Shown here in pieces: positions 602 to 30,032 of a stretch of 35,424 nt of DNA (its first letter is position 1; every line of letters begins with the position of its first letter). The notes under the pieces were generated by a model. That model searched no databases. It was not told the origin of the DNA and saw nothing but the letters and a program-made list of their open reading frames with translations. The position numbers were made by a program, and so were the translations under genes. The DNA comes from a virus. The stretch lies in IMG/VR virus record IMGVR_UViG_3300014039_000010, positions 1-35,424 of that record. One strand, given 5' to 3'.

Positions 602-625
602 AGAGGGCGCAATGCCCTCTTTTTT
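602..625. terminator. Bidirectional rho-independent terminator between the convergent holin and integrase genes
   Basis: Stem AGAGGGC (602-608) pairs with GCCCTCT (614-620), with a T-run after it and an A-run before it. Confidence 0.7.
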
Positions 626-1964
626 ATTTGAAGTGTATCGTTATGTCATTGCGGTTATTACCTACTTCGATATAGTCAATTATTGACTGCCACAAGTACC
701 TTTTTTCTGTGTCCTTTAGTGTGTGATATATACTTTCAAAGTCCATCGCTAGAACCGAATCTATACTATCCAAGTCGATGCTACTATCTTGCGTTTGGGC
801 TTCGAGTTCTGCTATCATGTCGTTCAAACGCACGTATTCGGCTTTGTAGGCACTTTTGTCTATCAAGTCGTCCAGATATAGGTCTTTTAGTTTTTCGAGC
901 TTATTTCGGCATTTTACGAGCTTACAAGCTATATCTTGCTTGTCTGTCTGCTTCTGCTTGACTTCGTACTCGACCTTGTATCGTTCGAGTTCGGGCTTGA
1001 TGTGCGCAAGCAGATATTTTTCTAATATGCCTGCTTCCGGGAGCGCATAGGTGTTTGTACATACTTTTTCTTTTACGGCTTTTTCGCATCTGTATAGCTT
1101 GTAATATCTGCCGCTTCTCATCCTTGCATTGCCACGAAGTGATCTGCCGCAGTATTTGCAACGTAACAACCCACTGAATATATAATCTATACCCGTGTTG
1201 TATTCGCGCTTGTTCATGCTTAAAAGCCTTTGTACGTTATTAAATTGTTCCGTGCTTATAATTGCAGGGCAATAGTCTTTTATGCCCTTAAATTCGCCTA
1301 TATAACGTTCGCATGATAGCCTACGCCTTATAAGTCCATAATTTACATATTCGTATTTTTCAGTTATATATTTCTTTGTTTTTGACACATTGTTGCATCG
1401 TTCGTAGTAATCAAACATGTCCTTTATTTCTGCCGCCGCTTTTTCGTCAATTACAAGCTTTTTATCCTTTATTATGTAGCCATGCGGAGCGGATGCGTTA
1501 CATACTTCGCCATTTTCTTTTTTGTGCTTAAATACGGCTTTGATACGTTCGCTTGTACGGTCGCATTCGTCTTGATTGACTGATAGCATGATGTTTATAT
1601 GCAGTCTGCCAGAGGCGGTGCTTGTGTCGTAGTCCTCTAATACTGTTTTCCAGTTACAATTATGTGCTTCGAGTATATCTTGCACGGCATAGTAATCTTT
1701 TATATTTCTGAACCATCTGTCTAATTTTGTCACAAGTATTAAGTCTATTTTGTCGTTTTGAACGTCTTTTAATAGCCTTTGCAAGTCTTTTCTGTTTGAT
1801 AGTTTTTTTCTTGCCGTGATCCCTTCGTCGGCATATGTATCTATAATCGTGTATCCTTTTGCTTTGGCATACTCTTTTAGAGTTGCTTCCTGTGCTTCTA
1901 GTGACAAGCCATGCAGAACCTGTTCGTCATGGCTCACACGGATATACAACGCCGCCCTAATCAT
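624..1964 (-). CDS. int: Large serine recombinase (phage integrase)
   Basis: 446 aa. N-terminal resolvase motif AALYIRVSHDEQ...GLSLEAQ, then a recombinase domain, a Cys-rich zinc ribbon (CKYCGRSL...YRCEK) and a C-terminal coiled coil. Confidence 0.95.
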   Translation of the reverse strand: MIRAALYIRVSHDEQVLHGLSLEAQEATLKEYAKAKGYTIIDTYADEGITARKKLSNRKDLQRLLKDVQNDKIDLILVTKLDRWFRNIKDYYAVQDILEAHNCNWKTVLEDYDTSTASGRLHINIMLSVNQDECDRTSERIKAVFKHKKENGEVCNASAPHGYIIKDKKLVIDEKAAAEIKDMFDYYERCNNVSKTKKYITEKYEYVNYGLIRRRLSCERYIGEFKGIKDYCPAIISTEQFNNVQRLLSMNKREYNTGIDYIFSGLLRCKYCGRSLRGNARMRSGRYYKLYRCEKAVKEKVCTNTYALPEAGILEKYLLAHIKPELERYKVEYEVKQKQTDKQDIACKLVKCRNKLEKLKDLYLDDLIDKSAYKAEYVRLNDMIAELEAQTQDSSIDLDSIDSVLAMDFESIYHTLKDTEKRYLWQSIIDYIEVGNNRNDITIHFK

Positions 1965-2427
1965 TGTTTTCTGCCTTCTTTATGCGGTCGTATTGCTCAA
2001 TTTCGCTTGATGTAAGGGCGTAGCTGCTATGTATGTATTCTAATAGGTCTAATATCAAATCCTTTTCTATCTTCTTTATATCAAGGTCTTTTATTGTTTG
2101 TGCGATTTCGTCAAATGTCTCATAAATATGTACTTTTGCCTTAATGCGTTTTATCATAAATACCTTTTCCGCGTCCGACATTTTACTTCTTGTCTTTACA
2201 AGTTTTAGGTCTATCCCTGTGTTATTATCCGCCTGCATCAATTCGCTTGTAGGCACGTCTAGCCACTCGCTTATACGTTGTACCTTGTCAATCGGAGGCT
2301 GGATGTTTCCTTTTTCATAATCTGCATATGTAGTACGTGCTATCCCTATACGTTGTGCCGCTTCAAATTGTGTTAAGCCTTGTCTTTTTCTGTGTTCTTT
2401 CAGTAGTTCATAATTAAATAAATTCAT
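1957..2427 (-). CDS. CI-like XRE-family HTH repressor
   Basis: 156 aa. N-terminal HTH_3 (RKRQGLTQFEAAQRIGIARTTYADYEKGNIQPP). Divergent from the early genes and overlaps int by 8 nt, so probably one operon. Confidence 0.85.
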   Translation of the reverse strand: MNLFNYELLKEHRKRQGLTQFEAAQRIGIARTTYADYEKGNIQPPIDKVQRISEWLDVPTSELMQADNNTGIDLKLVKTRSKMSDAEKVFMIKRIKAKVHIYETFDEIAQTIKDLDIKKIEKDLILDLLEYIHSSYALTSSEIEQYDRIKKAENND

Positions 2428-2460
2428 TTTTCTTCACTTCCTTTTGGTTATTCTGTCTAT

Positions 2461-2567
2461 ATTATACGCTAAAAACGTAATTTATAAACACTTTTTTTGT
2501 GCAAAACTTACAAAGTTGTGAAATTCGTTAAAAACGTATTGCAATTACGCTTGCAACGTAGTATTAT
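2461..2567. promoter_or_regulatory. Immunity-region switch with three copies of the TACGYT-N3-AACGTA operator, a rightward early promoter and a leftward repressor promoter
   Basis: Operators at 2465-2479, 2524-2538 and 2546-2560. Rightward promoter: -35 TTGCAA 2539-2544, 17-nt spacer holding the third operator, -10 TATTAT 2562-2567. Leftward -10 TATAAT is the reverse complement of 2461-2466. Confidence 0.6.
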
Positions 2568-2618
2568 AATTACAGAAGTTAAGGAAAGGAGCTACAAAGG
2601 TAGCAAAGGTAAAAAGAT

Positions 2619-2786
2619 ATGAGAGAATATGAAGTATTTTACAGAACAAGAGGAAACAAGGATGCAAACGTAACAAGCACAACAATAACTTGCAACAGCA
2701 AGGCGGAAGCAAGAAAAAACTTTGAAGAGTGGGATAACACAGGCAAAGAGTGGACGATCGTAAAGATTGAAAGAGTAGACGCATAG
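2619..2786 (+). CDS. Hypothetical small early protein (55 aa)
   Basis: ATG 2619 after the leader ..aaaggtaaaaagat. The ORF is below the track cutoff. It is the first gene after the early promoter. Confidence 0.5.
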   Translation: MREYEVFYRTRGNKDANVTSTTITCNSKAEARKNFEEWDNTGKEWTIVKIERVDA

Positions 2787-2839
2787 AGACAGAATCCGAG
2801 CGGTGGCGGATATGCCACCGCAGAAAGTGAGGCGTAGAT

Positions 2840-3133
2840 ATGATAGTGACTTATTTGTTGCCTACCGTGTGGGCTGGCAAAGTGCCGATTGAGTATAGGA
2901 TCGTAGAGAGAAAGAGAGACATGCGGACGAGATTTTGCAAGAATAACGAGTTTTTCAAAATCGACAAAGGATGGCTGGAGCACATGTTTAAATTCTATGA
3001 GGGCGGGCTTATGATTAAAGGTGACAGAATCCTTATGGCAAATAGCAGGGATGCATCAATGTTTTTCAACGACGTGTATAGATTATTCGATATCGCAAGG
3101 ATGCTGCAAGCAAAAAGTGCGGGGGTGATATAG
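2840..3133 (+). CDS. Hypothetical early protein (97 aa)
   Basis: ORF with RBS GTGAGG (2827-2832) upstream of ATG 2840. Confidence 0.55.
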   Translation: MIVTYLLPTVWAGKVPIEYRIVERKRDMRTRFCKNNEFFKIDKGWLEHMFKFYEGGLMIKGDRILMANSRDASMFFNDVYRLFDIARMLQAKSAGVI

Positions 3134-3288
3134 TGGATGAAATGTATATCGTTAAAGCTTTAAATTTGGATATATATATGCTTATTGACGAAGAATCGTG
3201 CAACGTGCTATGCACAGGCACATATCAAGAATGTGAGGACATGAAAGAGAGATTGATAAGTGCACAGGAAGCAAGCATAAGAGGGTAG
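3133..3288 (+). CDS. Hypothetical small early protein (about 51 aa)
   Basis: GTG 3133 (or ATG 3142) follows the RBS GGGGGTG. It is tightly packed with its neighbours. Confidence 0.4.
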   Translation: MDEMYIVKALNLDIYMLIDEESCNVLCTGTYQECEDMKERLISAQEASIRG

Positions 3289-3296
3289 GTGATTGT

Positions 3297-3473
3297 ATGG
3301 GATATATTATCGTAGGAGATAAGGACGGTGTCAGCGGCTACGTTATAGATTGCGGATTTTATACGCGTGAAGATGCAGAGCGCAGACTGGGACAGATTAT
3401 GGAGTGCCGGTCGTTACCGGATGAGATAATCAATATTGAGTATGACGATATCCGCATAGAAAGAGAGGATTGA
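3297..3473 (+). CDS. Hypothetical small early protein (58 aa), paralog of 3478..3687
   Basis: MGYIIVGDKDG..CGFYTREDAERRLGQIM aligns by eye with MEYVIVGDSEK..CGFKERERAERVLNRML of the next ORF. Confidence 0.55.
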   Translation: MGYIIVGDKDGVSGYVIDCGFYTREDAERRLGQIMECRSLPDEIINIEYDDIRIERED

Positions 3474-3477
3474 TAAG

Positions 3478-3687
3478 ATGGAATATGTTATCGTTGGCGA
3501 TTCAGAGAAGTACAAAGAATGCCTTTTATGCTGTGGATTTAAAGAAAGGGAACGGGCGGAGCGAGTGCTTAATCGGATGCTTAACAATCCGACGCGGGAT
3601 GACGAGCAGATCATGCATGGCATGAGCAATATTCGTGTGCAGGAAGTGGCAAGCGCGGATTGCTGGTGGAATGATAAGTACGATTAG
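3478..3687 (+). CDS. Hypothetical small early protein (69 aa), paralog of 3297..3473
   Basis: Track ORF with the shared N-terminal motif described for 3297..3473. Confidence 0.6.
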   Translation: MEYVIVGDSEKYKECLLCCGFKERERAERVLNRMLNNPTRDDEQIMHGMSNIRVQEVASADCWWNDKYD

Positions 3688-3701
3688 AAGGGAGTTTGCA
3701 T

Positions 3702-3908
3702 ATGGGTTTATCTGCACCATGCAAGGATTGTGGTAACCGGGTTGTTGGTTGTCATTCTACTTGCGACAAATACAGAATGTTTGCGGAAGAGCGTAAAGAG
3801 TATGTGCGAAAAGTAAAAGCTTGCAGGCGTAAAGATAGAGAGTACATGGAAGCAAGGCAGGCAAGTATCTATAAGTCGTTACGGAATGCCGGAAAGAAAG
3901 TGACGTAA
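3702..3908 (+). CDS. Small Cys-rich basic protein (CxxC...CxxxC)
   Basis: ATG 3702 lies 7 nt after the RBS GAAGGGAG. The sequence CKDCGNRVVGCHSTCDKY suggests a zinc-binding knuckle. Confidence 0.55.
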   Translation: MGLSAPCKDCGNRVVGCHSTCDKYRMFAEERKEYVRKVKACRRKDREYMEARQASIYKSLRNAGKKVT

Positions 3909-3913
3909 AAAAA

Positions 3914-3965
3914 TACGTTAAAACCGTAAAAAGTTGTTGACATTACGCTAATAACGTAGTAATAT
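3914..3965 (+). promoter_or_regulatory. Second early promoter with two operator copies
   Basis: Operators at 3914-3928 (TACGTTaaaACCGTA) and 3944-3958 (TACGCTaatAACGTA). -35 TTGACA 3937-3942, 17-nt spacer, -10 TAATAT 3960-3965. Geometry is the same as at 2539-2567. Confidence 0.6.
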
Positions 3966-3997
3966 GTCAATATAGCCGGAAGAAAGGGGGCGAAAAC

Positions 3998-4177
3998 TTG
4001 AATATAAGGGAAAAACGTGAGGAATTAGGCATGAGCCAGAAAGAGCTTGCAGAAAAAAGCGGAATCACGCAAAGCTTCTTATGCGACATTGAGCAAGGCA
4101 GAAGCAAGCCGAGTATTGACGTGGCAATTAAGCTTGCAAAGGTTCTGAAAGTTAAGGATATCAAGTTCTTTGAGTAA
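3998..4177 (+). CDS. Cro-like small XRE HTH protein (59 aa, TTG start)
   Basis: Not in the track because it is under 60 aa. RBS AAGAAAGGGGG lies 7 nt before TTG 3998. The HTH_3 is complete only from this start: IREKREELGMSQKELAEKSGITQSFLCDIEQGRSKPSIDVAIKLAKVL. Confidence 0.7.
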   Translation: MNIREKREELGMSQKELAEKSGITQSFLCDIEQGRSKPSIDVAIKLAKVLKVKDIKFFE

Positions 4178-4267
4178 TGAACGTGCAGGCTTTATATGAG
4201 GCACTTGCAAAGGTGCTGGAAGCAAGGGAGAATGCAATCATTAAAGTGAAAGTGGAGGTAAAAGAAG

Positions 4268-4549
4268 ATGAAGAGGACGGTTGAGGTTGAATATGTTGGT
4301 ATAAAGGATTTGACAGATATTATGTGCACCGCTAAAAGTGTAATGGAGCTTGGGCATTATGTAGCTATCAGTTTTTCAAACTATGAAAGGACTAACCCAC
4401 TTGTGAGCGTGATAATCCGTAGGAAAGACGTTGCAGAAGAGTATGATTTTTGCTTTTACGAAAGTAGCGACTGGAACGATGAATATTCGATTCAGCAGAT
4501 GAATGAATGCAAGAGTATACTTTACAATATATTAGCACAGGAGGACTAA
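4268..4549 (+). CDS. Hypothetical protein (93 aa)
   Basis: Track ORF in the operon, with an RBS-like GGAGGTAAAAGAAG upstream. Confidence 0.55.
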   Translation: MKRTVEVEYVGIKDLTDIMCTAKSVMELGHYVAISFSNYERTNPLVSVIIRRKDVAEEYDFCFYESSDWNDEYSIQQMNECKSILYNILAQED

Positions 4550-4553
4550 ATCT

Positions 4554-5027
4554 ATGAAGTTATATGAAATCGACAATGCAATTTATGAATGCGTGAACGA
4601 GGACGGAGAGGTCATTGATCCGGAGAAGCTGGAAGAGCTTCAGATGGAACGTGACAAGAAGATTGAAGGTATAGCTTGCTGGATAAAAGAGCTTGCAGCA
4701 GAAGCAAATGCAATCAAGGAAGAAAAGTTGAAACTTGAGGCAAGACAGAAGGTTGCAGAAAACAAGGTGAAAAGCCTTAAAGGTTATCTTGCATATGCAC
4801 TGCAAGGGGCAAGCTTCCACACCGCAAAGGCATCTATATCATTCAGAAAGACGGAGGCTGTTGAGGTCACGCCGGACGGGTTGGAAAACTTAAAAGCTAT
4901 GCGTGATGATCTGCTTAAATACAAAGAGCCAGAACCGGACAAGACGGCAATTAAACAGGCACTTAAATCCGGTTTAAACGTAAGAGGTGTACAGCTTGTA
5001 CAGAATACGTCGACGATCATTAAATAG
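4554..5027 (+). CDS. Siphovirus Gp157-like protein (recombination-module accessory)
   Basis: 157 aa. MKLYEI...IDPE..L..L..E...KIE..A..IK.L..E..AIK.E...L is characteristic of the Gp157 family, and the gene sits upstream of a Sak4-like ATPase. Confidence 0.65.
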   Translation: MKLYEIDNAIYECVNEDGEVIDPEKLEELQMERDKKIEGIACWIKELAAEANAIKEEKLKLEARQKVAENKVKSLKGYLAYALQGASFHTAKASISFRKTEAVEVTPDGLENLKAMRDDLLKYKEPEPDKTAIKQALKSGLNVRGVQLVQNTSTIIK

Positions 5028-9461: not shown

Positions 9462-9462
9462 C

Positions 9463-9730
9463 GTAAGTCAAAATGTAAGACATTAGAAACCTAGTATTTA
9501 TGCGGCTTTAGAGTATATATTTATATAATGTCTTACATTTTTACATGACTTACATATATTATATATATTTTATAGAAAAAATTCTTAAAGCTTATCTTTT
9601 AAGCTAATATAAAATATTTTTTATATATGTGCAGAAAAAATGTAAGAATGTAAGACCATTAGTATTTATGCGGGTTTACGAGGATTTTTATGTAAGACAA
9701 AATGTAAAAGTCTTACATAGAATGTAAGAA
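9463..9730. repeat. Putative replication origin: about 10 copies of the 8-9-mer ATGTAAG(A/T)C in both orientations around an AT-rich core
   Basis: Forward copies at about 9473, 9640, 9648, 9690 and 9722. Inverted copies at about 9530, 9547 and 9710. TAGTATTTATGCGG at 9492-9505 and 9660-9673. The AT-rich stretch is 9556-9635. There is no ORF. Confidence 0.6.
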
Positions 9731-9741
9731 GGGAGAGCGAA

Positions 9742-10555: not shown

Positions 10556-10771
10556 ATGAATAATTTATCTGATATTTTTTGTGAGTTCAAAGAAAAGGTT
10601 AATGATTTTGTCGATGGAGTAAGACAGTTTTCGTATAAGCAAGGCTATCGTAACGGAATTGTCGCTTTGTATGACAAACTGTACAAAGTGACGAAAGATG
10701 AAGAAGAGAGGCAAGTTATAACGCAAGCTGTACAGTCGTTGATGGAGGATATAGATAAATGGAGCTTATAA
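10556..10771 (+). CDS. Hypothetical protein (71 aa)
   Basis: ATG 10556 follows the RBS GGGAGG. Track ORF trimmed to this start. Confidence 0.5.
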   Translation: MNNLSDIFCEFKEKVNDFVDGVRQFSYKQGYRNGIVALYDKLYKVTKDEEERQVITQAVQSLMEDIDKWSL

Positions 10772-12144
10772 TCAGTAATGAGATCACGATAAAGGATCCT
10801 ACGCCAGAGGTTAGAGAGTGGGTATATACCCGCTTAAAAGTGGCAAATCCAGAGTATAGCAAAAAGGTAAGGCTTGGCTTATGGGTGGGAAAGACACCGA
10901 AAGACATTGCGCTTTATCGCAACAGCGGTGGCGATCTTATCATCCCGCATGGAGTAAAGGACAGCTTGCTTTATGCATTCCCAGAATTAAATGTCAATGG
11001 TTCTTTTGAGCATCCAGTATTATTTAATTATGCGTCAAATAAGCCAGTAAATTACAACGCAAGTATAAATCTATACGATTATCAGAAAGATGCATTAAAT
11101 AGCCTTGTACGCAGTCGTGGGGGCATATTACAGAGCAAGGCGGGAAGCGGTAAGACGAGAGTAGGTATTGCGCTTGCTTGTGCGCTTGGTAAAAAGACGT
11201 TGTGGCTCACACATACGAACGAGCTTTTGAATCAGTCGTATAATGCGGCAGCAGAATTTATCGACAAGAAGCTGCTTGGAAAGATCACGGCGGGCAAGAT
11301 GCAGATATCAGAGGGCATCACGTTTGCAACCGTGCAGACGTTAAGCAAGGCGGATTTGTTTGCACTTCGTAATGTCTGGGATGTCGTGATCGTGGACGAG
11401 TGCCACAGGTGCGCCGGTACAGTCAATCAAGCAACGATGTTCAGCAAGGTGCTGAATAATCTTGCGGCACCTTATAAATACGGTTTGTCTGCTACGCTTC
11501 ACAGGGCCGATGGACTTATACCTTGCACCTTTGCACTTCTGGGCGGCGTAGCGCATAGCGTGCCAGATAGTGCAGTACATACGATGCAAGTAAAGATTGA
11601 GCGAAAAGATACAGGCGTTAAGATCAGCAGAGCTTGTCTTGATACGGACGGAACGCTTGTATATGCAAAACTTATCAACTACCTTGCAGGACATTATGAA
11701 AGAAATTGCAAAATAGCGGGAGACATTGACTGCCTTGTCTATCAAAAACATAGTATTATACTTTTATCTGATAGAGTAGAGCACTTGAGCACGGTATATG
11801 ATCTTATATATCACAAAGAAGATGCTGTCATCCTACATGGCAAGGTTAAAAAAGCGGACAGGGAACAGGCGTTGGAGCAGATGCGCAACAAGGAAAAGCG
11901 CATATTGCTTGCAACGTATCAGCTTGCAAAAGAGGGGCTTGACGTGCCTTGTCTTGACAGGTTGCTACTTGCTACACCAGTCAAAGACTATGCGATTGTA
12001 GTGCAATCGGTAGGACGTATCGCCAGAGTGTGCGAGGGCAAGGGCGAGCCAGTAGTGTATGACTATGTGGACGACATAGGATTTTTGCAAGGCATGTGGA
12101 AAAAACGCTGTACTTCTTACAGAAAAGACGGCTGCATACTGTAA
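10759..12144 (+). CDS. SF2 DEAD/DEAH-box DNA helicase
   Basis: Motif I AGSGKT, motif II VIVDECHR (DExH), and C-terminal helicase motifs (LLATYQLAKEGLDVP, VQSVGRIAR). Confidence 0.85.
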   Translation: MELIISNEITIKDPTPEVREWVYTRLKVANPEYSKKVRLGLWVGKTPKDIALYRNSGGDLIIPHGVKDSLLYAFPELNVNGSFEHPVLFNYASNKPVNYNASINLYDYQKDALNSLVRSRGGILQSKAGSGKTRVGIALACALGKKTLWLTHTNELLNQSYNAAAEFIDKKLLGKITAGKMQISEGITFATVQTLSKADLFALRNVWDVVIVDECHRCAGTVNQATMFSKVLNNLAAPYKYGLSATLHRADGLIPCTFALLGGVAHSVPDSAVHTMQVKIERKDTGVKISRACLDTDGTLVYAKLINYLAGHYERNCKIAGDIDCLVYQKHSIILLSDRVEHLSTVYDLIYHKEDAVILHGKVKKADREQALEQMRNKEKRILLATYQLAKEGLDVPCLDRLLLATPVKDYAIVVQSVGRIARVCEGKGEPVVYDYVDDIGFLQGMWKKRCTSYRKDGCIL

Positions 12145-12154
12145 TTTGTATAAA

Positions 12155-12190
12155 ATGCACAAAGAGACATTAAAACTTTGTGCATTTTTA
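12155..12190 (+). terminator. Rho-independent terminator ending the replication operon
   Basis: Perfect 10-bp stem, ATGCACAAAG 12155-12164 with CTTTGTGCAT 12176-12185, followed by TTTTT. Confidence 0.75.
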
Positions 12191-12243
12191 TACGCTAAAA
12201 ACGTAATAAAATACTTGCAATTACGTTGTGAACGTAGTATAGT
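12191..12243 (+). promoter_or_regulatory. Third early promoter with two operator copies
   Basis: Operators at 12191-12205 (TACGCTaaaAACGTA) and 12222-12236 (TACGTTgtgAACGTA). -35 TTGCAA 12215-12220, 17-nt spacer, -10 TATAGT 12238-12243. Confidence 0.6.
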
Positions 12244-12291
12244 ATAGACAAGATAAAGAAAGGACCGGCACAGCCGGAAAGGTAAGAAGAT

Positions 12292-12507
12292 ATGAAAACA
12301 ATGAAGTTGACGAACGGAACAAAAGAATTTATCGCAAAAGTAGGGAAAAAATATGTGCATAAGAAATATGGAGTTGTGACAGTCGTTAAAATGTATCGTG
12401 CGCTTGATGATAAGTATATTGTTTTTGAAAATAATTTAGGACAGACATTTAGAGAATACACACATTTGAATTGTAAGTTATTTACAAGAATTATATTTGA
12501 AGTGTAA
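12292..12507 (+). CDS. Hypothetical small protein (71 aa)
   Basis: Track ORF. Its leader is paralogous to the one at 2571-2621. Confidence 0.55.
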   Translation: MKTMKLTNGTKEFIAKVGKKYVHKKYGVVTVVKMYRALDDKYIVFENNLGQTFREYTHLNCKLFTRIIFEV

Positions 12508-12554
12508 ATAACAACCGAGCCGGGGCGGTTACTCCGGCAGAAAGAGAGGAAGAT

Positions 12555-12707
12555 ATGAGGAATAAGCATTATTCAATTACTTGTAGCGACGGAACTGTTA
12601 AGAACTTTCAGAAGTGGCATGATGGCGTAATAACGATGCAGACTATAAGAAATGGAAAGATATTACCGATAAAGGTGTTGAGATATAAAGGAGGTATGAA
12701 GGCATGA
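12555..12707 (+). CDS. Hypothetical small protein (50 aa)
   Basis: ATG 12555 follows the RBS AGAGAGGAAG. Below the track cutoff. Confidence 0.45.
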   Translation: MRNKHYSITCSDGTVKNFQKWHDGVITMQTIRNGKILPIKVLRYKGGMKA

Positions 12708-12850
12708 ATGATTATAATAACTATATGGTTGTAGCGGATAACGATCAAGTACTGGAAAGAAATCTGTACAGGGGTGAAGCTATTAAGCTTGCCGTTGAAA
12801 TGAAAAGAAGATATCCAGAAAGTGATTTTTATATATGTGAGCAGGATTAG
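12704..12850 (+). CDS. Hypothetical small protein (48 aa)
   Basis: ATGA overlap with the previous stop, with the RBS AAGGAGG upstream. Confidence 0.45.
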   Translation: MNDYNNYMVVADNDQVLERNLYRGEAIKLAVEMKRRYPESDFYICEQD

Positions 12851-12862
12851 GAGGTAAAAGAT

Positions 12863-12994
12863 ATGTGGTACATAATCAATGGAGCTGGCGAAAGATGCAA
12901 GGCGGTAGAGACTGAGCCTGAGGCTATCGTCGAGATTGCAAATAACTTATGGTATGTAGAATATGTGTACTCTAACGAAGATCGTATGTGTTAG
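12863..12994 (+). CDS. Hypothetical small protein (43 aa)
   Basis: ATG 12863 follows the RBS AGGAGGTAAAAG. Confidence 0.4.
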   Translation: MWYIINGAGERCKAVETEPEAIVEIANNLWYVEYVYSNEDRMC

Positions 12995-13020
12995 CGAGAA
13001 AGATGAAAGTGAGGGATAAT

Positions 13021-13302
13021 ATGACAGAGAGTGAAGCGGTAGAAAAACTGAAAAATATGCGATTGTTTATGCAGATTGAGGATGAGAAGAGCAAGTGCAA
13101 ATTTACAGAAGATGATTACAAAGCAAATGAAATGGCAATACAGGCACTCGAAAAGCAGATACCGAAAAAACCGCTGCATATTGCAAATTTAGGTTATACA
13201 GCATTATGGTTGTGTCCGGTGTGCGAAAGAAGAATAATTAGAAGTGATTTAAAGTATTGCCACCAGTGCGGGCAAAAAATAGACTGGAGTGATGAAAAAT
13301 GA
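13021..13302 (+). CDS. Small protein with a C-terminal zinc ribbon (CPVC...CHQC)
   Basis: ATG 13021 follows AGTGAGGGATAAT, the same RBS context as at 124-139. Confidence 0.55.
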   Translation: MTESEAVEKLKNMRLFMQIEDEKSKCKFTEDDYKANEMAIQALEKQIPKKPLHIANLGYTALWLCPVCERRIIRSDLKYCHQCGQKIDWSDEK

Positions 13303-13499
13303 TGATATTTAGCTGGATATTGATGTTTGCATCTGTGTTACTTGGGTGCTATGGCTTTTGCATGTCGGATAAAGGGCTGATACCGCAGTATGCAGTGTGG
13401 GTTAATTCAATCGTAGTTATCTTGTTATTTGTATCTGCAATTATGATACAGAAGCGGGAAGCAGAGATAGAGAAAGGAGGTGTAGAGGATGACGATTGA
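13299..13499 (+). CDS. Two-TM small membrane protein with a charged C-terminal tail (class II holin-like architecture)
   Basis: 66 aa. TM1 IFSWILMFASVLLGCYGFCM, TM2 YAVWVNSIVVILLFVSAIMI, tail QKREAEIEKGGVEDDD. It lies two genes upstream of the endolysin. Confidence 0.5.
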   Translation: MMIFSWILMFASVLLGCYGFCMSDKGLIPQYAVWVNSIVVILLFVSAIMIQKREAEIEKGGVEDDD

Positions 13500-13773
13500 T
13501 AGTGTAATAGAAAATTTGAAATATGATGTTGAGATAGATATGTATATTCGTGATATAGCTCCACAGATTGCAGAATGGCTGGAAGAACTAAAAACCACGA
13601 GAAATCTTGATAAAACAAATTTTTCTGATGGCTACAACAAGGCGTTTGAAGATGTAATGAATATGCTGAATGGCATAGAATTTGACGGCGGCACAAAAGA
13701 AACACTTGCTTGTGCAAATGCAACACTTAACTACATCAAGGAGGAAGTAGAGAAGTTAAGAAGTGACGGCTAG
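13489..13773 (+). CDS. Hypothetical protein (94 aa)
   Basis: Track ORF with RBS AAAGGAGGTG upstream. Confidence 0.55.
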   Translation: MTIDSVIENLKYDVEIDMYIRDIAPQIAEWLEELKTTRNLDKTNFSDGYNKAFEDVMNMLNGIEFDGGTKETLACANATLNYIKEEVEKLRSDG

Positions 13774-13814
13774 ACCGTACTTGTGCTACAATGTAAGCAG
13801 AAAGGGGCGATATA

Positions 13815-14750
13815 ATGCAGAAATTTGGTATTGATATTTCAAAATGGCAAAAGGGTTTTGATTTTGACAAGGCAAAGGCAGAGGGCGTGGAGTTCATTAT
13901 CTTGCGTGGCGCATATTCAAATAGCAAGGATTCTTGCTTCGAGGATTTTTATAAGTCATGCAAGGACAGGGGGATCCCAATCGGTGTCTATCATTACTCA
14001 ATGGCGAAGTCTGTTATGGATGCAAAGAAAGAAGCAGAGCTTATGCTTGATGTCTTAAAGGGCAAGCAGCTCGAGTATCCAATTTACTTAGACGTAGAGG
14101 ATGAGACACAGGCGAAATTAGGAAAGTCGGTACTTACGGCTATCATTAAGACATACTGTGACACGCTGGAAGATGCAGGTTATTATGCAGGCATTTATAG
14201 TACGTACAGTTATCTTAACAGCTACACGAATATTGCGGAGCTGTGCAAGTATGATAAGTGGATAGCGCAGTGGCACACAAAGTGCAGTTGTCCGATTGAC
14301 TATGGCATGTGGCAGTTTGGGGGCGAGACAAACAAGATCCGCTCAAACAAGATTGCGGGCGTTACTTGTGACCAGGATTACGCATACTTCGATTATCCGT
14401 CTATTATGCGTAAATCCGGTTTAAACGGCTTTTCTAAGTCCGAGGGTACAAATACACCACCTGTACAGGAAAAACCTCTTAAATCGGCTTTGGACGTTGC
14501 TAGAGAGATATTGGATGGCAAGTGGGGGAACGGTGCAGACAGAAAAGCAAGGCTTACTGCTGCCGGATACAACTATGACGAGGTACAGGCGAAGGTCAAC
14601 GAGCTTTGCAAACCACAAAAGACAGTAGATCAGCTTGCACGTGAAGTTATCGCGGGGCAGTGGGGTACAGGCTTGAATCGCAAGAACAGACTTACACAGG
14701 CGGGGTACGATTATGCCGCAGTACAAAAGAGAGTAAATGAGTTATTGTAG
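13815..14750 (+). CDS. Endolysin: GH25 muramidase with two C-terminal CW_7 (Cpl-7-type) cell-wall-binding repeats
   Basis: N terminus FGIDISKWQ...FIILRGAY...DVE matches GH25. The two repeats are GKWGNGADRKARLTAAGYNYDEVQAKVNEL and GQWGTGLNRKNRLTQAGYDYAAVQKRVNEL. Confidence 0.9.
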   Translation: MQKFGIDISKWQKGFDFDKAKAEGVEFIILRGAYSNSKDSCFEDFYKSCKDRGIPIGVYHYSMAKSVMDAKKEAELMLDVLKGKQLEYPIYLDVEDETQAKLGKSVLTAIIKTYCDTLEDAGYYAGIYSTYSYLNSYTNIAELCKYDKWIAQWHTKCSCPIDYGMWQFGGETNKIRSNKIAGVTCDQDYAYFDYPSIMRKSGLNGFSKSEGTNTPPVQEKPLKSALDVAREILDGKWGNGADRKARLTAAGYNYDEVQAKVNELCKPQKTVDQLAREVIAGQWGTGLNRKNRLTQAGYDYAAVQKRVNELL

Positions 14751-14790
14751 GAGATCATATGGCGAAGAATAAAAGAAAGGAATAACGAAT

Positions 14791-14812
14791 CCTCGGTAAA
14801 CCGAGGTTATCA
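14791..14812 (+). terminator. Weak terminator-like hairpin after the endolysin
   Basis: CCTCGG-taaa-CCGAGG followed by TTATCATCTAT, a poor U-tract. Confidence 0.35.
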
Positions 14813-14988
14813 TCTATATGTGTTAAAGATTTGATATAAAATTCGTAATAGTAGCGTTTGCGATTCGATAAGGTGGAATTTGAAGTATCGCACATAAAGC
14901 ATATTTGACTTATGTGAGTTTCAGACCGCAGGCATGGGAAGCGTATACGAATTATCCACGATTACAAAGCGATTTGTAGCGTGGTGTT

Positions 14989-15744
14989 ATGGCAAAGAGA
15001 AAACTAAAAGTATGTTGGGTAAGTGCTGGAATATCAAGTTTTATGGCTGGATATTTAGCGGAAAATGTAGATGAGTGGATTTACATTGATATATCAGACC
15101 AGCATCCAGATAGTTTGAGATTTATTAAAGATTGTGAGAAAGCAATCGGAAAAGAAATCGGAAAAGAAATGCAGATATTGCAATCAAAGGAATATCGGAG
15201 TGTTGAAGAGTGCGTAAAGGTTTTCGGTGGTTTTAGGAATCCAGGAAACGGATTTGCACCTTGCACGAACTGGCTGAAAAAGAGAGTTCGTAAGGAGTGG
15301 GAAGAACAACACAAAGATTGTGATTTGACTTATGTATGGGGATTTGATTTGAAAGAGAAAAATCGAGCCGAGAGGACAATCGAAGTTAATCCGCAGGCAG
15401 AGCATGAATTTCCACTTATCGACAGAGGCTTGTCTAAGGAAGAGGTACATGGATTGTTTGAACGTACTTTTGATTTTAAGAGACCGAAGATGTATGAAAT
15501 GGGTTATCCGAACAATAACTGCATCGGATGTGTCAAAGGTGGAATGGGTTATTGGAACAAGATCAGAAAAGACTTCCCGGAAGTGTTCGAGAGCCGGGCG
15601 AAGTTGGAGCGATTGGTCGGATATTCAATACTGAAAGACAGTAAAGGCAATCCGATATATCTTGACGAGCTGGATCCAGACAGGGGTAACATGGATACAG
15701 AAATCTTCCCAGAGTGTGGGATCATGTGCTACTTGTCGTTGTAA
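14989..15744 (+). CDS. PP-loop (adenine nucleotide alpha-hydrolase) superfamily enzyme, PAPS-reductase-like
   Basis: 251 aa. N-terminal VCWVSAGISS resembles a degenerate SGGxDS PP-loop. CTNWLKK and NCIGCVKGG are Cys motifs. Similar genes sit next to terminase genes in many phages. Confidence 0.5.
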   Translation: MAKRKLKVCWVSAGISSFMAGYLAENVDEWIYIDISDQHPDSLRFIKDCEKAIGKEIGKEMQILQSKEYRSVEECVKVFGGFRNPGNGFAPCTNWLKKRVRKEWEEQHKDCDLTYVWGFDLKEKNRAERTIEVNPQAEHEFPLIDRGLSKEEVHGLFERTFDFKRPKMYEMGYPNNNCIGCVKGGMGYWNKIRKDFPEVFESRAKLERLVGYSILKDSKGNPIYLDELDPDRGNMDTEIFPECGIMCYLSL

Positions 15745-15753
15745 ACAGAACAG

Positions 15754-15786
15754 GGCTACGCTTTATGTGTAGCCTTTTTTCTTTTT
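15754..15786 (+). terminator. Rho-independent terminator
   Basis: GGCTAC 15754-15759 pairs with GTAGCC 15769-15774, followed by TTTTTTCTTTTT. Confidence 0.7.
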
Positions 15787-21937: not shown

Positions 21938-22212
21938 ATGTAAACCAAAATGTAAGTCAAAGAAACGTAGTATTTATGCGGTGTTCATACATTTGTCTTG
22001 CAATCTTCCATAATTTTTTCAATTACAAAAAAATATTAGTAAATATATAAAAAATAAAAGAGCTGATATAAAAATCGCTATATGAATATATAAATATAAA
22101 AATTATGTATTTATGTATATATATGTAATAAAAAGGCTTATAAACCCTTATAAATACTACATTCTTGGTGTCTTACATTTTGACTTACATTTGACTTACG
22201 TTTTACATTTTC
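21938..22212. repeat. Second iteron and AT-rich region, related to the 9463-9730 origin
   Basis: A direct copy of the origin unit lies at 21938-21981 and an inverted copy at 22145-22188, flanking an AT-rich core of about 160 bp. Further GACTTAC(A/G)T iterons lie at 22181-22210. Confidence 0.6.
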
Positions 22213-22217
22213 CAGTA

Positions 22218-27362: not shown

Positions 27363-30032
27363 ATGGCACAGACAGTAGGTGCGGTTGCACTTGATATAGT
27401 TATGGGTAAGAATAACGTGAGTAGCGCTGTCAAAGGTGCTGTGAACGAGGCGCAGAATGCCGCGAGTTCTGGAAGCTCAAAGATTAAGAGCGCATTAAGC
27501 GGGATTGGCACGGCGGCAAAGACAGTCGGCAAGGTTGCGGTTGCAGGACTTGGTGTTGCGGCGGCAGGCATTACCGCAGTCGGTAAGACTGCAATAGATG
27601 AGTATGCGAACTACGAACAGTTGGTCGGTGGTGTTGACACGCTTTTCAAGAGCAGTAGCCAGAAGGTGCAGCAGTACGCGGCAAACGCATATCAAACGGC
27701 TGGTATGTCCGCAAATACGTATATGGAGACAGTAACGAGCTTTTCTGCATCACTGTTGCAGTCGCTTGGCGGAGACACAGAAAAGGCGGCAGAACAGGCG
27801 AACAAAGCCGTTGTAGATATGTCCGATAATGCAAACAAGATGGGTACAAATATCGAGGATATCCAGCACGCATACCAAGGCTTTGCGAAGCAGAACTACA
27901 CTATGCTTGACAACCTTAAACTCGGATATGGCGGTACGAAAGAGGAAATGGAGCGACTTCTTGCGGATGCTGAGAAGATATCCGGCATTAAGTACGATAT
28001 ATCAAGTTATAGTGATATTGTAGATGCAATTCATGTAGTACAGGATGAAATGGGTATCACGGGCACGACAGCAAAGGAAGCAAGCACAACTATTGAGGGT
28101 TCTATCAACTCCATGAAAGGTGCATGGTCTAACCTTATGACAGGTTTGGTCGACAGTAATCAGAATATGACGACCTTAACGACCAACTTCGCAAACAGTC
28201 TCTTTACTGTTGCAGATAACATTGTGCCGCGTATTACGCAGGTGTTATCCGGAATAGCAAGTGCGATAGATCAGCTTGCACCGAAAATGACAGAGAAGAT
28301 ACCGGGCATCTTAAATCAGTTATTGCCGGCACTTGTCAGCGGTGCGACTTCCCTCGTCAATTCGCTTGTTACAGTGCTTCCGGGTATCCTTGGCGCGCTG
28401 ACAGGCATCTTGCCGCAGTTGATTGAGGGCGTGGCTACGATTATACAGGGTATATGCAATGCACTGCCGCAGTTGGTGCAGGCGATAGTCGATGCGCTAC
28501 CTTCAATTATACCGGCACTTGTGTCCGGCCTTATCAATGTTGCAGTTAGTCTTATGACGATGCTTCCGCAGATTATCCAGCCGATTATTACGGCATTGCC
28601 GACGATTATCAGTTCGCTTGTGCAAGCATTGATCGCGAATCTTCCGCTATTGATTGCCGGGGCAATTCAGCTTGTTATTGGACTTGTAGCGGCACTCCCA
28701 GAAATCATAGCGGCACTTATAAATGCTATGCCTATGATTGTACAGGGTATCGCAGACGGAATTGTGCAAGCGGGGCATATCTTGACAGAAAAAGCGGGTG
28801 CAATCTTTGAACCTTTGAAGGGCATAGTGCAGGGTGCATGGACGGCAATTAAGACAATTATTGAGGGCGTGCTTACGGCAATCGTTGCAGTAGTTGGCGG
28901 AATATGGATGGCAATTCAGACGGTGATTACAACCGCAATGAATATTATAAAGACAATTATTGAGACTGTATGGAATGTCATAAAGACGGTTATTACGACA
29001 ATTATTACGGCAATTCAAACAGTCATAACGACTGTCTGGAACATTATTAAGACAGTAGTAACGACAGTTGTAACAGCGATTCAGACAGTTATTACGACAG
29101 TATTTAATACAATCAAGACTGTTATAACTACAATCATAAATGCAATAAAGACAGTTATCACAACCGCTTGGAATGCGATTAAGACGGCAGTGACAACAGT
29201 TGTGAATGCAATCAAGACTGTTATTGAGACAGTTTGGAACGCAATAAAGACAGTAGTAACAACGGTCGTGGGCGGTATTAAGAATGCAGTAAGTACAGCT
29301 TGGAACGGCATTAAAACTGCAACGTCTACGATCTTTGGCGGTGTAAAGAGTGCAGCAAGCACAGCCTGGAACGGCATTAAGTCAACGGTATCCACGCTTG
29401 CAAATGGCGCAAAGAGCGCAGCATCTAAGGCGTGGGAAGGTATCAAGTCGAGCATTCAGAACAACAGTGGCGGGATTCAGAACGCGGTATCAAATTGCTT
29501 CAATGGCGCAAAAGATAAGATTTCAAGCTTTGCATCGCAGGCGGTAAGCTGGGGTGCAGATTTCGCGAACGGACTTGCAGATGGTATCAAGGGTGCAGCA
29601 GGCAAGGTTGTTGACGCGGCAAAGAGCTTGGGAAACAAGATTAAAGAGTTCCTGCACTTCTCACGACCAGACAAAGGACCACTTCGTGATTACGAGACTT
29701 GGATGCCGGACTTTGTGCAGGGAATGGCAAACGGAATCGACCAGAACAAGTACAGGTTAATAAATTCTGTACAGAAAATGGCAAATCAGATGGTTATGCC
29801 TGCTATACAGGCACCTGCATTGAAGAACGTCGGAGCAGGCACAGGCTATACTTCAAACCCTAGTACAAGTACGAGTGATGACAGACTGTACGGCTTGCTT
29901 ACTCAGCTTGTAGCCGGTATCAATCGCATGGGCGATATTACAGTGCCGGTATACCTTGGAAACGACTTGATCGACGAACAAATCATAAAAGCGAACGATC
30001 GTAGAACGCTTAGAAGTGGAGGCAGGGCATAA
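27363..30032 (+). CDS. Tape measure protein
   Basis: 889 aa, the longest gene. It has hydrophobic LP-rich and repeat segments and sits after the chaperones. Confidence 0.9.
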   Translation: MAQTVGAVALDIVMGKNNVSSAVKGAVNEAQNAASSGSSKIKSALSGIGTAAKTVGKVAVAGLGVAAAGITAVGKTAIDEYANYEQLVGGVDTLFKSSSQKVQQYAANAYQTAGMSANTYMETVTSFSASLLQSLGGDTEKAAEQANKAVVDMSDNANKMGTNIEDIQHAYQGFAKQNYTMLDNLKLGYGGTKEEMERLLADAEKISGIKYDISSYSDIVDAIHVVQDEMGITGTTAKEASTTIEGSINSMKGAWSNLMTGLVDSNQNMTTLTTNFANSLFTVADNIVPRITQVLSGIASAIDQLAPKMTEKIPGILNQLLPALVSGATSLVNSLVTVLPGILGALTGILPQLIEGVATIIQGICNALPQLVQAIVDALPSIIPALVSGLINVAVSLMTMLPQIIQPIITALPTIISSLVQALIANLPLLIAGAIQLVIGLVAALPEIIAALINAMPMIVQGIADGIVQAGHILTEKAGAIFEPLKGIVQGAWTAIKTIIEGVLTAIVAVVGGIWMAIQTVITTAMNIIKTIIETVWNVIKTVITTIITAIQTVITTVWNIIKTVVTTVVTAIQTVITTVFNTIKTVITTIINAIKTVITTAWNAIKTAVTTVVNAIKTVIETVWNAIKTVVTTVVGGIKNAVSTAWNGIKTATSTIFGGVKSAASTAWNGIKSTVSTLANGAKSAASKAWEGIKSSIQNNSGGIQNAVSNCFNGAKDKISSFASQAVSWGADFANGLADGIKGAAGKVVDAAKSLGNKIKEFLHFSRPDKGPLRDYETWMPDFVQGMANGIDQNKYRLINSVQKMANQMVMPAIQAPALKNVGAGTGYTSNPSTSTSDDRLYGLLTQLVAGINRMGDITVPVYLGNDLIDEQIIKANDRRTLRSGGRA
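28836..29462 (+). repeat. Intragenic tandem array inside the tape measure gene: 19 units of 33 nt (11 aa, consensus xW/xNAIKTVITT)
   Basis: The protein segments exactly into 19 consecutive 11-mers, from AWTAIKTIIEG to AWEGIKSSIQN. Trp falls on alternate units, giving a 22-aa super-period. Confidence 0.85.

Follow-up and report, generated by a model that had tools for sequence, protein, structure and literature searches.

We have analysed two non-coding mRNA elements, a leader hairpin and an intercistronic element, each present in two operons of a 35,424-nt stretch of viral DNA (IMG/VR record IMGVR_UViG_3300014039_000010, positions 1 to 35,424; the whole stretch is hereafter the window). Sequence comparison indicates that the intercistronic element is an H-type pseudoknot, a predicted structure with covariation support in both helices, and that both modules are large families in temperate phages whose hosts are Clostridia of the gut and rumen. 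The analysis demonstrates the structures, their covariation, their geometry with respect to promoter, stop codon, Shine-Dalgarno (SD) sequence and start codon, their spread, their hosts and their independence of the gene downstream. As to function, the chances appear about even that both are cis-acting mRNA structures capping the 5' side of the ribosome binding site (RBS), portable modules that would guard cistrons against RNase J acting 5' to 3' and/or make translation initiation stronger and better insulated.

Promoters and gene organization

The promoters, operators, terminator and reading frames that frame the two operons are as follows.

2465-2479 and 2546-2560, plus strand: operator-like palindromes TACG-N7-CGTA at P1 (pattern scan)
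2539-2567, plus strand: promoter P1, TTGCAA, 17-nt spacer, TATTAT (consensus scan, 9/12 matches)
2619-2786, plus strand: first small ORF of operon 1, 55 aa; family matches uninformative
2840-3133, plus strand: ORF2 of operon 1, beginning at ATG 2840, 97 aa
3914-3928 and 3944-3958, plus strand: operators of the 3937-3965 promoter (TACG-N7-CGTA pattern scan)
3937-3965, plus strand: third paralogous promoter, TTGACA-17-TAATAT (repeat family, consensus scan)
12156-12189, plus strand: intrinsic terminator, TGCACAAAG...CTTTGTGCA and a T-run (from sequence; descriptor scan flags both strands)
12191-12205 and 12222-12236, plus strand: operators at P3 (TACG-N7-CGTA pattern scan)
12215-12243, plus strand: promoter P3, TTGCAA-17-TATAGT (consensus scan)
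12292-12507, plus strand: first small ORF of operon 2, 71 aa, unrelated to ORF 2619-2786
12555-12707, plus strand: ORF2 of operon 2, beginning at ATG 12555, 50 aa

A CI-like repressor gene is annotated at 1957-2427 on the minus strand, divergent from P1, and a serine integrase is also annotated among the window ORFs. The palindrome TACG-N7-CGTA occurs six times in the window versus 0.38 expected, twice at each of three promoters, and the copy at 2546-2560 falls between the -35 and -10 boxes of P1. The 3937-3965 promoter drives a Cro-like HTH gene (3998-4177) from a leader without a hairpin, which therefore serves as an internal comparison. The terminator at 12156-12189, whose position is kept in relatives, closes the replication operon 3' of the helicase gene (10759-12144), and a strong plus strand terminator lies at 15752-15776, between the operon starting at 12215 and the terminase genes.

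The two promoter-leader regions are 74% identical across ∼95 nt (E 1e-9), and no mutual similarity was found between the proteins downstream of the two promoters. The shared layout in front of unrelated proteins, first proposed in a sequence-only reading of this DNA, is thus upheld; the sequences and positions given there for leaders and intercistronic elements are correct, and the predicted folds contain exactly the stems noted in both. Relatives of this phage were obtained through a helicase search. Neither BLASTN of positions 1900-4600 against cultured phages nor a scan of IMG/VR for the promoter as an exact pattern matched anything, and a repressor protein search in IMG/VR yielded no relatives.

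The leader hairpin module

Each leader consists of a purine block, a hairpin and the SD of the first ORF.

2584-2590, plus strand: GAAAGGA of leader 1, SD-like (from sequence)
2591-2604, plus strand: leader 1 hairpin, GCTAC-AAAG-GTAGC (sequence, predicted fold)
2605-2609, plus strand: leader 1 SD, AAAGG, 9 nt before ATG 2619
12258-12264, plus strand: GAAAGGA of leader 2 (from sequence)
12265-12277, plus strand: leader 2 hairpin, CCGGC-ACA-GCCGG (sequence, predicted fold)
12278-12282, plus strand: leader 2 SD, AAAGG, followed by ATG 12292

Folding z-scores of the hairpins are -3.3 in leader 1 and -2.5 in leader 2. The module has the order GAAAGGA, a hairpin of 4-7 bp and AAAGGTAA-N6-ATG; GAAAGGA lies 35 nt upstream of the ATG and, by prediction, ∼8-9 nt from the point where transcription starts. 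In the family, the distance from a sigma70-type -10 box to GAAAGGA is 14-17 nt. This is the anatomy by which STAB-SD and aprE-type leaders are recognized, that is, a 5'-proximal SD-like purine block/stem-loop upstream of the initiating SD.

The two paralogous leaders that were originally described are present, though their extent is larger than one genome, since the module is found repeatedly in IMG/VR phages with highly varied stems. Among the IMG/VR pattern matches listed, 49 of 102 carry an end-anchored stem of at least 4 bp versus 2.8 in shuffles. Stem and promoter occur together: 38 of the listed matches have a promoter within 60 nt upstream, 37 of these with a stem, and a promoter is found in only 1 of 53 stemless matches. 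A leader orthologue in relative G001 has the hairpin CTGC-AAGA-GCAG. RNAalifold predicted zero pairs on a MAFFT alignment of 26 leaders because hairpins of unequal length and register were misaligned; leader pairing was judged by per-sequence stem counts against shuffles. The full layout of promoter, leader, ORF1 and pseudoknot is seen in about one third of the leader operons among the matches listed.

The intercistronic element is a predicted pseudoknot

The second element lies between the first and second ORF of each operon.

2795-2821, plus strand: pseudoknot 1 (descriptor scan, predicted fold, family covariation)
2822-2832, plus strand: extended SD AGAAAGTGAGG, directly adjoining pseudoknot 1 (sequence, generic RBS repeat families)
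12514-12538, plus strand: pseudoknot 2 (predicted fold, descriptor scan, orthologues in relatives)
12539-12549, plus strand: extended SD AGAAAGAGAGG, adjoining pseudoknot 2 (from sequence)

In pseudoknot 1, which begins 8 nt past the stop codon TAG 2784-2786, helix S1 is formed by TCCG 2795-2798 and CGGA 2807-2810, loop L1 is A2799, helix S2 is formed by GCGGTGG 2800-2806 and CCACCGC 2815-2821, and loop L3 is TATG 2811-2814. Pseudoknot 2 begins 6 nt past TAA 12505-12507 and has the same organization, with S1 formed by ACCG 12514-12517 and CGGT 12526-12529, L1 being A12518, S2 formed by GCCGGGG 12519-12525 and CTCCGGC 12532-12538 with one G-U pair, and L3 being TA; A12513:T12530 could add a fifth S1 pair. 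Folding z-scores of the S2 hairpins are -2.1 (2795) and -1.7 (12514), and these are the only GC-rich matches to the pseudoknot descriptor in the window. The element had been described as a hairpin with conserved flanks. The S2 stem of that description stands, while the plain hairpin does not: the 5' flank (T/A)CCG can pair with CGG(A/T) in the loop, and the element is therefore assigned as a pseudoknot. The 3' flank, agaaagNgagg, is the generic RBS of this phage and is not specific to the element. The loop lengths satisfy H-type sterics, with a 1-nt L1 crossing an S2 of 6-7 bp and an L3 of at least 2-3 nt crossing a 4-bp S1. A single-nucleotide loop 1 also spans the 7-bp stem 2 of the T2 gene 32 pseudoknot, the same geometry as here, and tmRNA PK1 is a natural 22-nt pseudoknot with a 1-nt loop 1.

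Two copies alone are insufficient to establish a compensatory pattern, and it is the database relatives that provide the covariation. Two independent database scans each kept one helix constant while covariation was read in the other. With S2 and the 3' flank constant, all four Watson-Crick flank-loop pairs of S1 are present in 50 of the 82 distinct IMG/VR matches listed, versus 15.9 ± 3.0 in shuffles (maximum 29 in 2000) and 0-1 in slid registers. In the gap-free subset, 79.0% of cells are paired versus 59.8 ± 1.9 in shuffles, with 37 double-sided changes versus 11.9, and neither the paired fraction nor the double-sided count was attained in any of 500 shuffles. The S1 pair types seen include GCCG:CGGC, ACCG:CGGT, CCCG:CGGG, GGCG:CGCC and AGCG:CGCT, among others. 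When S1 was held constant, an S2 stem of at least 6 bp was detected in 40 of the 100 matches listed versus 0.18 in shuffled sequences, comprising 12 distinct arms; 94.4% of cells are paired in the gap-free set, with double-sided changes in three of seven pairs. Four relatives (L004, L005, L011 and L012) carry orthologues of pseudoknot 2 with compensatory changes, the S2 arms in relatives being GCCAGAG/CTCTGGC, GCCACAG/CTGTGGC and GTCGGG/CTCGAC. Selection on RNA structure, as originally suspected, is thus confirmed for both elements, the varied stems pairing far above shuffled controls.

The resulting consensus is 25-28 nt long, with an S1 of 4-5 bp, a single A as L1, a GC-rich S2 of 6-8 bp and an L3 of 2-5 nt; among the matches listed, L1 is A in 99 of 130 pseudoknots, S2 is mostly 6-7 bp and L3 mostly 4 nt. 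Sequence conservation of S2, the L1 A and the CCG/CGG core of S1 exceeds the needs of pairing.

Placement, spread and hosts

Placement between genes is narrowly confined among the matches listed, the spacer from stop codon to S1 being 6-11 nt in 120 of 187 pseudoknots, the intergenic gap mostly 43-57 nt and the distance to the start codon ∼13-18 nt with a peak at 14-16 nt. When the 3' flank is left unconstrained, AGAAAG occurs at offset 0 in 48 of the 135 matches listed, and the remaining flanks in this set are mostly AGGAGG, AGAAGGAGG or similar, a few nt away. In the unbiased sample, AGAAAGG follows the pseudoknot with zero nt between them in only around half of the members, and stacking on the SD helix is therefore not universal. 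The 16S rRNA 3' end of a pseudoknot-bearing Clostridiaceae isolate reads ...CACCTCCTTTCTA, the complement of AGAAAGGAGG.

This phage and two complete relatives have exactly two pseudoknots each, one after ORF1 of each repressor-controlled operon. Several other loci carry 2-4 at successive junctions, and the genes downstream of pseudoknots are mutually unrelated. Each module occurs in dozens of distinct phage contigs, true membership exceeding the matches listed. The isolate Clostridiaceae bacterium Marseille-Q4145 carries a variant of the pseudoknot (L217), and further variant classes were seen in L316 and L402. Genome matches with intact S1 are almost all from Clostridia among those listed, and GC-rich phyla have hairpins with the same stem lacking S1 pairing. 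RNase J is encoded in all five of five pseudoknot-bearing host genomes. BLASTN of one pseudoknot against cultured phages gave a chance match only. Neither motif was found, even with a relaxed descriptor, in three cultured Lachnospiraceae phages that are primase/helicase relatives, and the modules are therefore dispensable.

Known RNA classes

Rfam 15 gave no match in the whole window at gathering threshold, none at 2500-2900 with E up to 10 and, around 12514 with E up to 10, only chance matches elsewhere. The models without a match at the pseudoknots include those of riboswitches such as preQ1 and of the hammerhead, twister and pistol ribozymes. The DUF805b motif (RF02914), one of the DUF805 leader motifs and catalogued as an RNA of 35 positions, is rejected: its model misses both pseudoknots, its best scores being 9.2 and 6.4 bits at 11155 and 13158 against a cut-off of 35.6, and, in contrast to DUF805b, the elements here have a different consensus, Clostridia as hosts and a canonical extended SD after the pseudoknot. 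A full-text literature search, recent language-model motif preprints included, yielded no description of either motif.

Neither element is an intrinsic terminator, as had been argued from the start, because there is no U-tract on the plus strand and an SD and ATG follow directly. The four elements are all absent from the plus strand scans, and AAAGG or AGAAAG lies immediately 3' of each. The pseudoknot resembles those of frameshift and read-through sites in being a compact H-type fold 6-9 nt downstream of the A-site codon (PMC5009743). However, unlike at recoding sites, the downstream ORF has its own SD and ATG and occurs equally in all three frames (intergenic length modulo 3 is 49/49/46 among the listed pseudoknots), and a role in -1 frameshifting or read-through is therefore rejected. 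By eye, in-frame read-through of TAG 2784-2786 would meet TAG 2835-2837.

The PeSL of T4-type phages RB49 and phi1 are likewise small conserved cassettes of a sigma70-like promoter and a stem-loop, repeated among non-essential ORFan genes with a modular distribution that suggests shuffling (PMC2839356). The PeSL stem-loops are effective terminators and the definition calls for a terminating stem-loop, whereas the present hairpin lies in a 5' UTR downstream of the promoter, has no U-tract and adjoins an SD; assignment as a PeSL is therefore rejected.

Proposed function

Among the roles suggested in the sequence-only reading, that of a 5' stabiliser is the best fit to the family-wide anatomy. 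From a repressor-controlled sigma70-type promoter, transcription would start ∼8-9 nt before GAAAGGA, which is followed by the hairpin, the functional SD (AAAGG) and the ATG; hairpin, decoy SD and bound 30S subunit may together protect the primary 5' end. The pseudoknot would form in the untranslated gap, barely past the reach of a ribosome that has come to the stop codon of the ORF before it, and its 3' end in most cases adjoins an extended SD predicted to pair with the 16S rRNA 3' tail. As a mechanically robust fold it could guard each internal cistron from RNase J after upstream cleavage, keep the adjoining SD single-stranded independently of context and possibly, by stacking on the SD:anti-SD helix, strengthen initiation.

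A more specific form of this proposal, put forward tentatively by analogy, is that the pseudoknot may be a phage exonuclease roadblock that halts RNase J at cistron boundaries and may stack coaxially on the SD:anti-SD helix, the leader being the matching cap for primary 5' ends. The analogy is with viral exonuclease-resistant RNAs, compact structures that resist directional unwinding; we know of no such RNA from bacteria or phages. Should the roadblock exist, each downstream gene would be a self-contained, stabilised and efficiently initiated unit.

Several observations run against the cap model, among them the junctions that are not zero-nt and the three cultured phages that have neither motif. 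The leader hairpin starts ∼15-17 nt from the predicted transcription start, whereas in Bacillus the 5' stem-loop stabilisers that are best characterised are only a few nt away from the 5' end. To insulate an SD, a plain hairpin would be enough. Furthermore, conservation of the single-A L1 and of the S2 sequence is explained by the model only via mechanical robustness.

The nearest known systems are the Bacillus stabilisers cryIIIA STAB-SD, aprE, SP82 polypurine and hbs. For STAB-SD, for the aprE 5' stem-loop with ribosome binding and for the polypurine stabiliser the primary papers are references 106, 109 and 179 of PMC3997798, and on the hbs mRNA initiating ribosomes block RNase J1 (PMC5737220). 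The stabilisers, like the present modules, have a 5' SD-like block too distant to initiate, a 5'-proximal stem-loop and a strong SD, and in Bacillus RNase J1 is blocked by structure or by a 30S subunit that has bound. The phages studied here have Firmicutes encoding RNase J as hosts. Unlike in Bacillus, block, hairpin and SD, whose role in stability is putative, form one cassette of fixed geometry common to many phages, the hairpin is separated from the 5' end by an estimated distance of at least 15 nt, and at internal positions the structure is a pseudoknot.

Alternative explanations

A site for a trans-acting factor, either a small ligand or an RNA-binding protein encoded by phage or host, which would bind the pseudoknot, and perhaps the leader hairpin, and tune downstream translation, appears unlikely. 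It would account for the conservation of S2, the L1 A and the S1 core past pairing needs, the fold is compact in the manner of preQ1-type riboswitches, and, as with the T4/RB69 gene 32 operator, an H-type pseudoknot of ∼28 nt lies 5' of a phage ribosome-binding region (PMC535899). The gene 32 pseudoknot is unique to one gene, is separated from its RBS by >40 unstructured nt and nucleates gp32 binding; the present one, in contrast, is generic, directly adjoins the SD and is found ahead of dozens of unrelated genes across widely differing phages. In addition, no shared neighbouring protein was seen, the fold leaves the SD unsequestered and no riboswitch or other Rfam model matches.

Similarly improbable is that the modules act mainly as DNA homology linkers for cassette swapping, with RNA structure incidental. 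Near-identical modules of 30-45 nt do lie beside non-homologous small ORFs in many phages, close relatives have differing first ORFs at the same promoter position, and PeSL are promoter and stem-loop cassettes linked to shuffling (PMC2839356). Homologous exchange, however, does not require pairing, yet both helices pair through double-sided changes, and the elements are strand-specific and held at fixed distances to stop codon, SD and start codon. A linker role is more probably a by-product of evolution than the function under selection.

In lambda (nutL and nutR) and HK022 (put), two early operons under repressor control each contain a single RNA element, located 3' of the first small gene. 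The pseudoknots could by this precedent be nut- or put-like sites that render RNA polymerase terminator-resistant, a role which we regard as very unlikely. Their number and position, each after ORF1, in the present phage and in both complete relatives do resemble nutR after cro, and the strong plus strand terminator at 15752-15776 precedes the terminase genes. Antitermination, also among the roles first suggested, is disfavoured because family pseudoknots recur at successive junctions 250-400 nt apart with fixed distances to stop and start codons and an adjoining SD, none of which a polymerase-loading site needs. On inspection a boxA-like element was not evident, and a comparison of 20 window ORFs, part of the gene set, with PHROGs revealed no N-like protein.

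Finally, that the leader hairpins are weak terminators of minus strand (antisense) transcription is barely credible: a consensus scan lists both as terminator-like on that strand, where TCCTTTC(C/T)TT follows, but the stems are only 4-5 bp, a C interrupts the tract, the conserved purine block is an anti-SD complement and the element is tied to a plus strand promoter and ATG family-wide.

Implications for the phages of Clostridia

Post-transcriptional control in gut and rumen Clostridia is, to our knowledge, almost unexplored. The modules mark early-transcript starts and early-cistron boundaries in temperate phages of these hosts and could help annotators of metagenomic phage contigs to locate early promoters and to pick the true start codons. 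If the function proposed here, capping of the 5' side of the RBS, is correct, they would provide a first handle on per-cistron stability and translation in these phages and would constitute portable, context-independent RBS caps for engineering of Clostridia.

Intercistronic pseudoknots

The element that follows the first small ORF in each of two early operons is a pseudoknot. The sequence-only reading had described a plain hairpin; its stem (S2) stands, but in both copies the four bases ahead of a lone A complement the first four loop bases, so that the 5′ flank and the loop form a second helix (S1).

Knots of the window
2795-2821, plus strand: knot TCCG-a-GCGGTGG-CGGA-tatg-CCACCGC
12514-12538, plus strand: knot ACCG-a-GCCGGGG-CGGT-ta-CTCCGGC

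All sequences quoted in that reading are found at their positions, and minimum-energy folds of both element types, leader and intercistronic, contain exactly the stems proposed. Conservation of the flanks holds on the 5′ side, which pairs with the loop, but not on the 3′ side, where agaaagNgagg is the ribosome-binding site that this phage uses generally, assigned to its generic repeat families (D5, D7 and D12). The T..A to A..T difference between the two knots is, as read from the sequence, a compensatory change. These knots are the only two GC-rich descriptor matches in the window. Relatives found via the helicase (72-79% identity) have the same element, located downstream of the first ORF to follow the helicase (loci L004 and L005) and also in their other early operon (L012 and L011), with S2 stems GCCAGAG/CTCTGGC, GTCGGG/CTCGAC, GCCGGAG/CTCCGGC and GCCACAG/CTGTGGC. 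Scans against Rfam 15 gave no family match, whether at the gathering score or with E allowed up to 10, the DUF805b model has no match at the knots, and neither the knot nor the leader motif was found in Rfam or in the literature covered by full-text search. A terminator scan detected no U-tract on the plus strand at the elements, as had been noted from sequence.

Covariation of S1 and S2

Selection on RNA pairing, as originally proposed, is upheld among database relatives, in which stems vary yet pair beyond the level of shuffles. With S1 fixed (ACCGAG-N5-8-CGGT-N8-12-CAGAAAG), an IMG/VR scan returned at least 100 distinct matches; among the 100 listed, 40 have an S2 stem of at least 6 bp, compared with 0.18 in shuffles, and 12 different arms occur. 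In the gap-free subset of the matches listed, 94.4% of cells pair and both-sided changes are observed in 3 of 7 pairs. With S2 fixed (GCCGGGG-N5-11-CCCCGGCAGAAAG), the flank and loop pair at 4/4 positions in 50 of 82 distinct matches, compared with 15.9 ± 3.0 in shuffles and 0-1 in slid registers. The gap-free subset comprises 62 sequences; pairing there reaches 79.0% of cells (59.8% in shuffles) and both-sided changes occur in 37 cells (11.9 in shuffles), neither value being reached in any of 500 shuffles. The same stem pattern applied to GTDB as a control gave 21 matches with S1 fully paired, including Lachnospiraceae, Oscillospiraceae, Eubacteriales, Acutalibacteraceae and Peptococcales; by record title all are Clostridia, the exceptions being three metagenome bins under other labels, of which two come from gut or rumen samples. 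Same-stem hairpins of GC-rich Proteobacteria and Actinobacteria in GTDB have neither S1 pairing nor a downstream ATG.

Anatomy of the knot family

In 209 sequences, the window plus viral loci, the knot descriptor gave 151 matches, compared with 16 in shuffles. Of 130 knots, 99 have A as loop L1, and L3 usually spans 4 nt (ATAT, TAAT or AAAT). The knot starts 6-11 nt after the upstream stop codon in 120 of 187 cases, behind an A/C-rich spacer, and its end mostly lies 13-18 nt before the next start codon, within an intergenic gap of mostly 43-57 nt. Since the downstream ORF is evenly spread over all three frames (49/49/46), the knot does not drive frameshifting or read-through fusion. Where the 3′ flank was left free, AGAAAG directly abuts the knot end in 48 of 135 matches, the remainder mostly starting AGGAGG, AGAAGGAGG, ATTGGAGG or similar within a few bases. 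A Clostridiaceae isolate that bears a knot has a 16S gene ending in CACCTCCTTTCTA, so that AGAAAGGAGG complements the rRNA tail in full. Genes after knots encode mainly small hypothetical proteins, with a few RecT, PAPS reductase, anti-restriction and endolysin genes and no common family; at several loci successive junctions hold 2-4 knots.

Promoters and genome context

The phage is a temperate siphophage whose complete 35.3-kb genome comes from IMG/VR; the record is a circularly closed assembly with an exact 78-nt direct terminal repeat (1-78 and 35347-35424) and a unique genome of 35346 bp.

Annotated leftward genes
624-1964, minus strand: serine integrase
1957-2427, minus strand: CI-like repressor

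Rightward, small ORFs, a Cro-like HTH protein, Gam, Sak4, primase/helicase and helicase are followed by further small ORFs, endolysin, a PAPS-reductase-like gene, terminase, portal and tail genes. The closest cultured phages by primase/helicase (33-37% amino-acid identity) infect Anaerostipes, Ruminococcus gnavus and Roseburia. Repeat-family analysis and a promoter scan identify the plus-strand promoters at 2539, 3937 and 12215 as paralogous. Each carries two TACG-N7-CGTA palindromes (six in the window, 0.38 expected), and presumably one and the same repressor controls all three.

The second repressor-controlled operon (12215-15776) includes the endolysin (13815-14750) and PAPS-reductase-like (14989-15744) genes and is closed by a strong plus-strand terminator (15752-15776) directly ahead of the small terminase gene (15832), an unusual order in which lysis genes driven by an operator-bearing promoter precede packaging genes. 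Two AT-rich intergenic regions, 9462-9740, after the primase/helicase gene, and 21940-22215, contain many (A)TGTAAGAC/T copies in both orientations and the 21-nt repeat AGAAACNTAGTATTTATGCGG (at 9485, 9653 and 21961); they look like replication-origin iterons or regulator-binding sites. A 33-nt periodic repeat at 28841-29263 (at least 8 units, 60-70% identity), within an 889-aa ORF (27363-30032), probably reflects an 11-residue repeat of the tape-measure protein.

The leader family

The shared layout claimed for the 2539 and 12215 transcripts is confirmed, the two stretches aligning at 74% identity (E 1e-9) while the proteins encoded downstream are unrelated. At the third promoter (3937), no leader hairpin was found. 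The pattern GAAAGGA-N11-17-AAAGGTAA-N6-8-ATG detects at least 113 stretches, at least 102 of them distinct. An end-anchored Watson-Crick stem of 4 bp or more is present in 49 of the 102 distinct matches listed, compared with 2.8 in shuffles. A TTGACA-N17-TATAAT-like promoter lies within 60 nt of 38 listed matches, 37 of which have the stem. Of the 53 stemless matches, only 1 has such a promoter. Stems of the listed matches are diverse (CAACATC/GATGTTG, GCCCC/GGGGC, AGCC/GGCT, CAACC/GGTTG, GTCC/GGAC, CACCG/CGGTG), with GAAAGGA 14-17 nt beyond the end of the -10 box. One 83-kb phage (L345) has five copies, and in relative G001 the orthologue of the first operon carries the hairpin CTGC-aaga-GCAG. 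The module is optional, because the helicase-proximal leaders of L004, L005 and L006 lack a hairpin. The leader hairpins scored as weak terminator-like sites when the minus strand was scanned, a reading opposed by the family-wide lock to a plus-strand promoter and ATG. A knot or variant knot follows the first ORF in about one third of leader operons among the matches listed, the leader-ORF-knot order present twice in the window.

Variant knots share the topology and placement of the main knot and differ in sequence: one is gcaCCT-g-CCCGGC-a-AGGT-taga-GCCGGG-agaaag; in another, the loop GGAGGTTAC is conserved and an A bulges from the stem. Variant knots directly follow the first ORF behind the leader in L316, L388, L363, L402, L308, L321, L330, L335, L343 and L357, phages of ~45-90 kb mostly from sample 3300045988. 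In L011 (relative G002), a GC-richer leader of ~200 nt between the first early promoter and first ORF replaces the short hairpin leader and may be another structured RNA or a small gene.

A proposed role

A stable structure immediately 5′ of the SD is common to both modules, and RNase J is encoded in all five of the knot-bearing host genomes checked. In Bacillus, 5′-proximal SD-like purine blocks, 5′ stem-loops and initiating ribosomes shield mRNAs from the 5′-to-3′ exonuclease RNase J1 (review PMC3997798, references 106, 109 and 179; PMC5737220). At the primary 5′ end, the leader would join a decoy SD, a hairpin and the true SD. In a polycistronic RNA under dense translation, the knot would fill the sole part that ribosomes need not unwind, right behind the terminating ribosome and right ahead of the initiating one, and a pseudoknot resists directional unwinding better than a hairpin. 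An operator for a trans-acting factor, recombination linkers and nut-like antitermination are less probable, each matching the family-wide geometry more poorly than a 5′ cap. Position between ribosomes, resistance to unwinding and the Bacillus precedent lead us to favour a per-cistron 5′-cap role for knot and leader. Where the junction is zero-spaced, the knot could possibly stack on the SD:anti-SD helix. As a 5′ cap for each cistron, the knot would stop exonucleolytic decay while leaving the SD free and context-independent.
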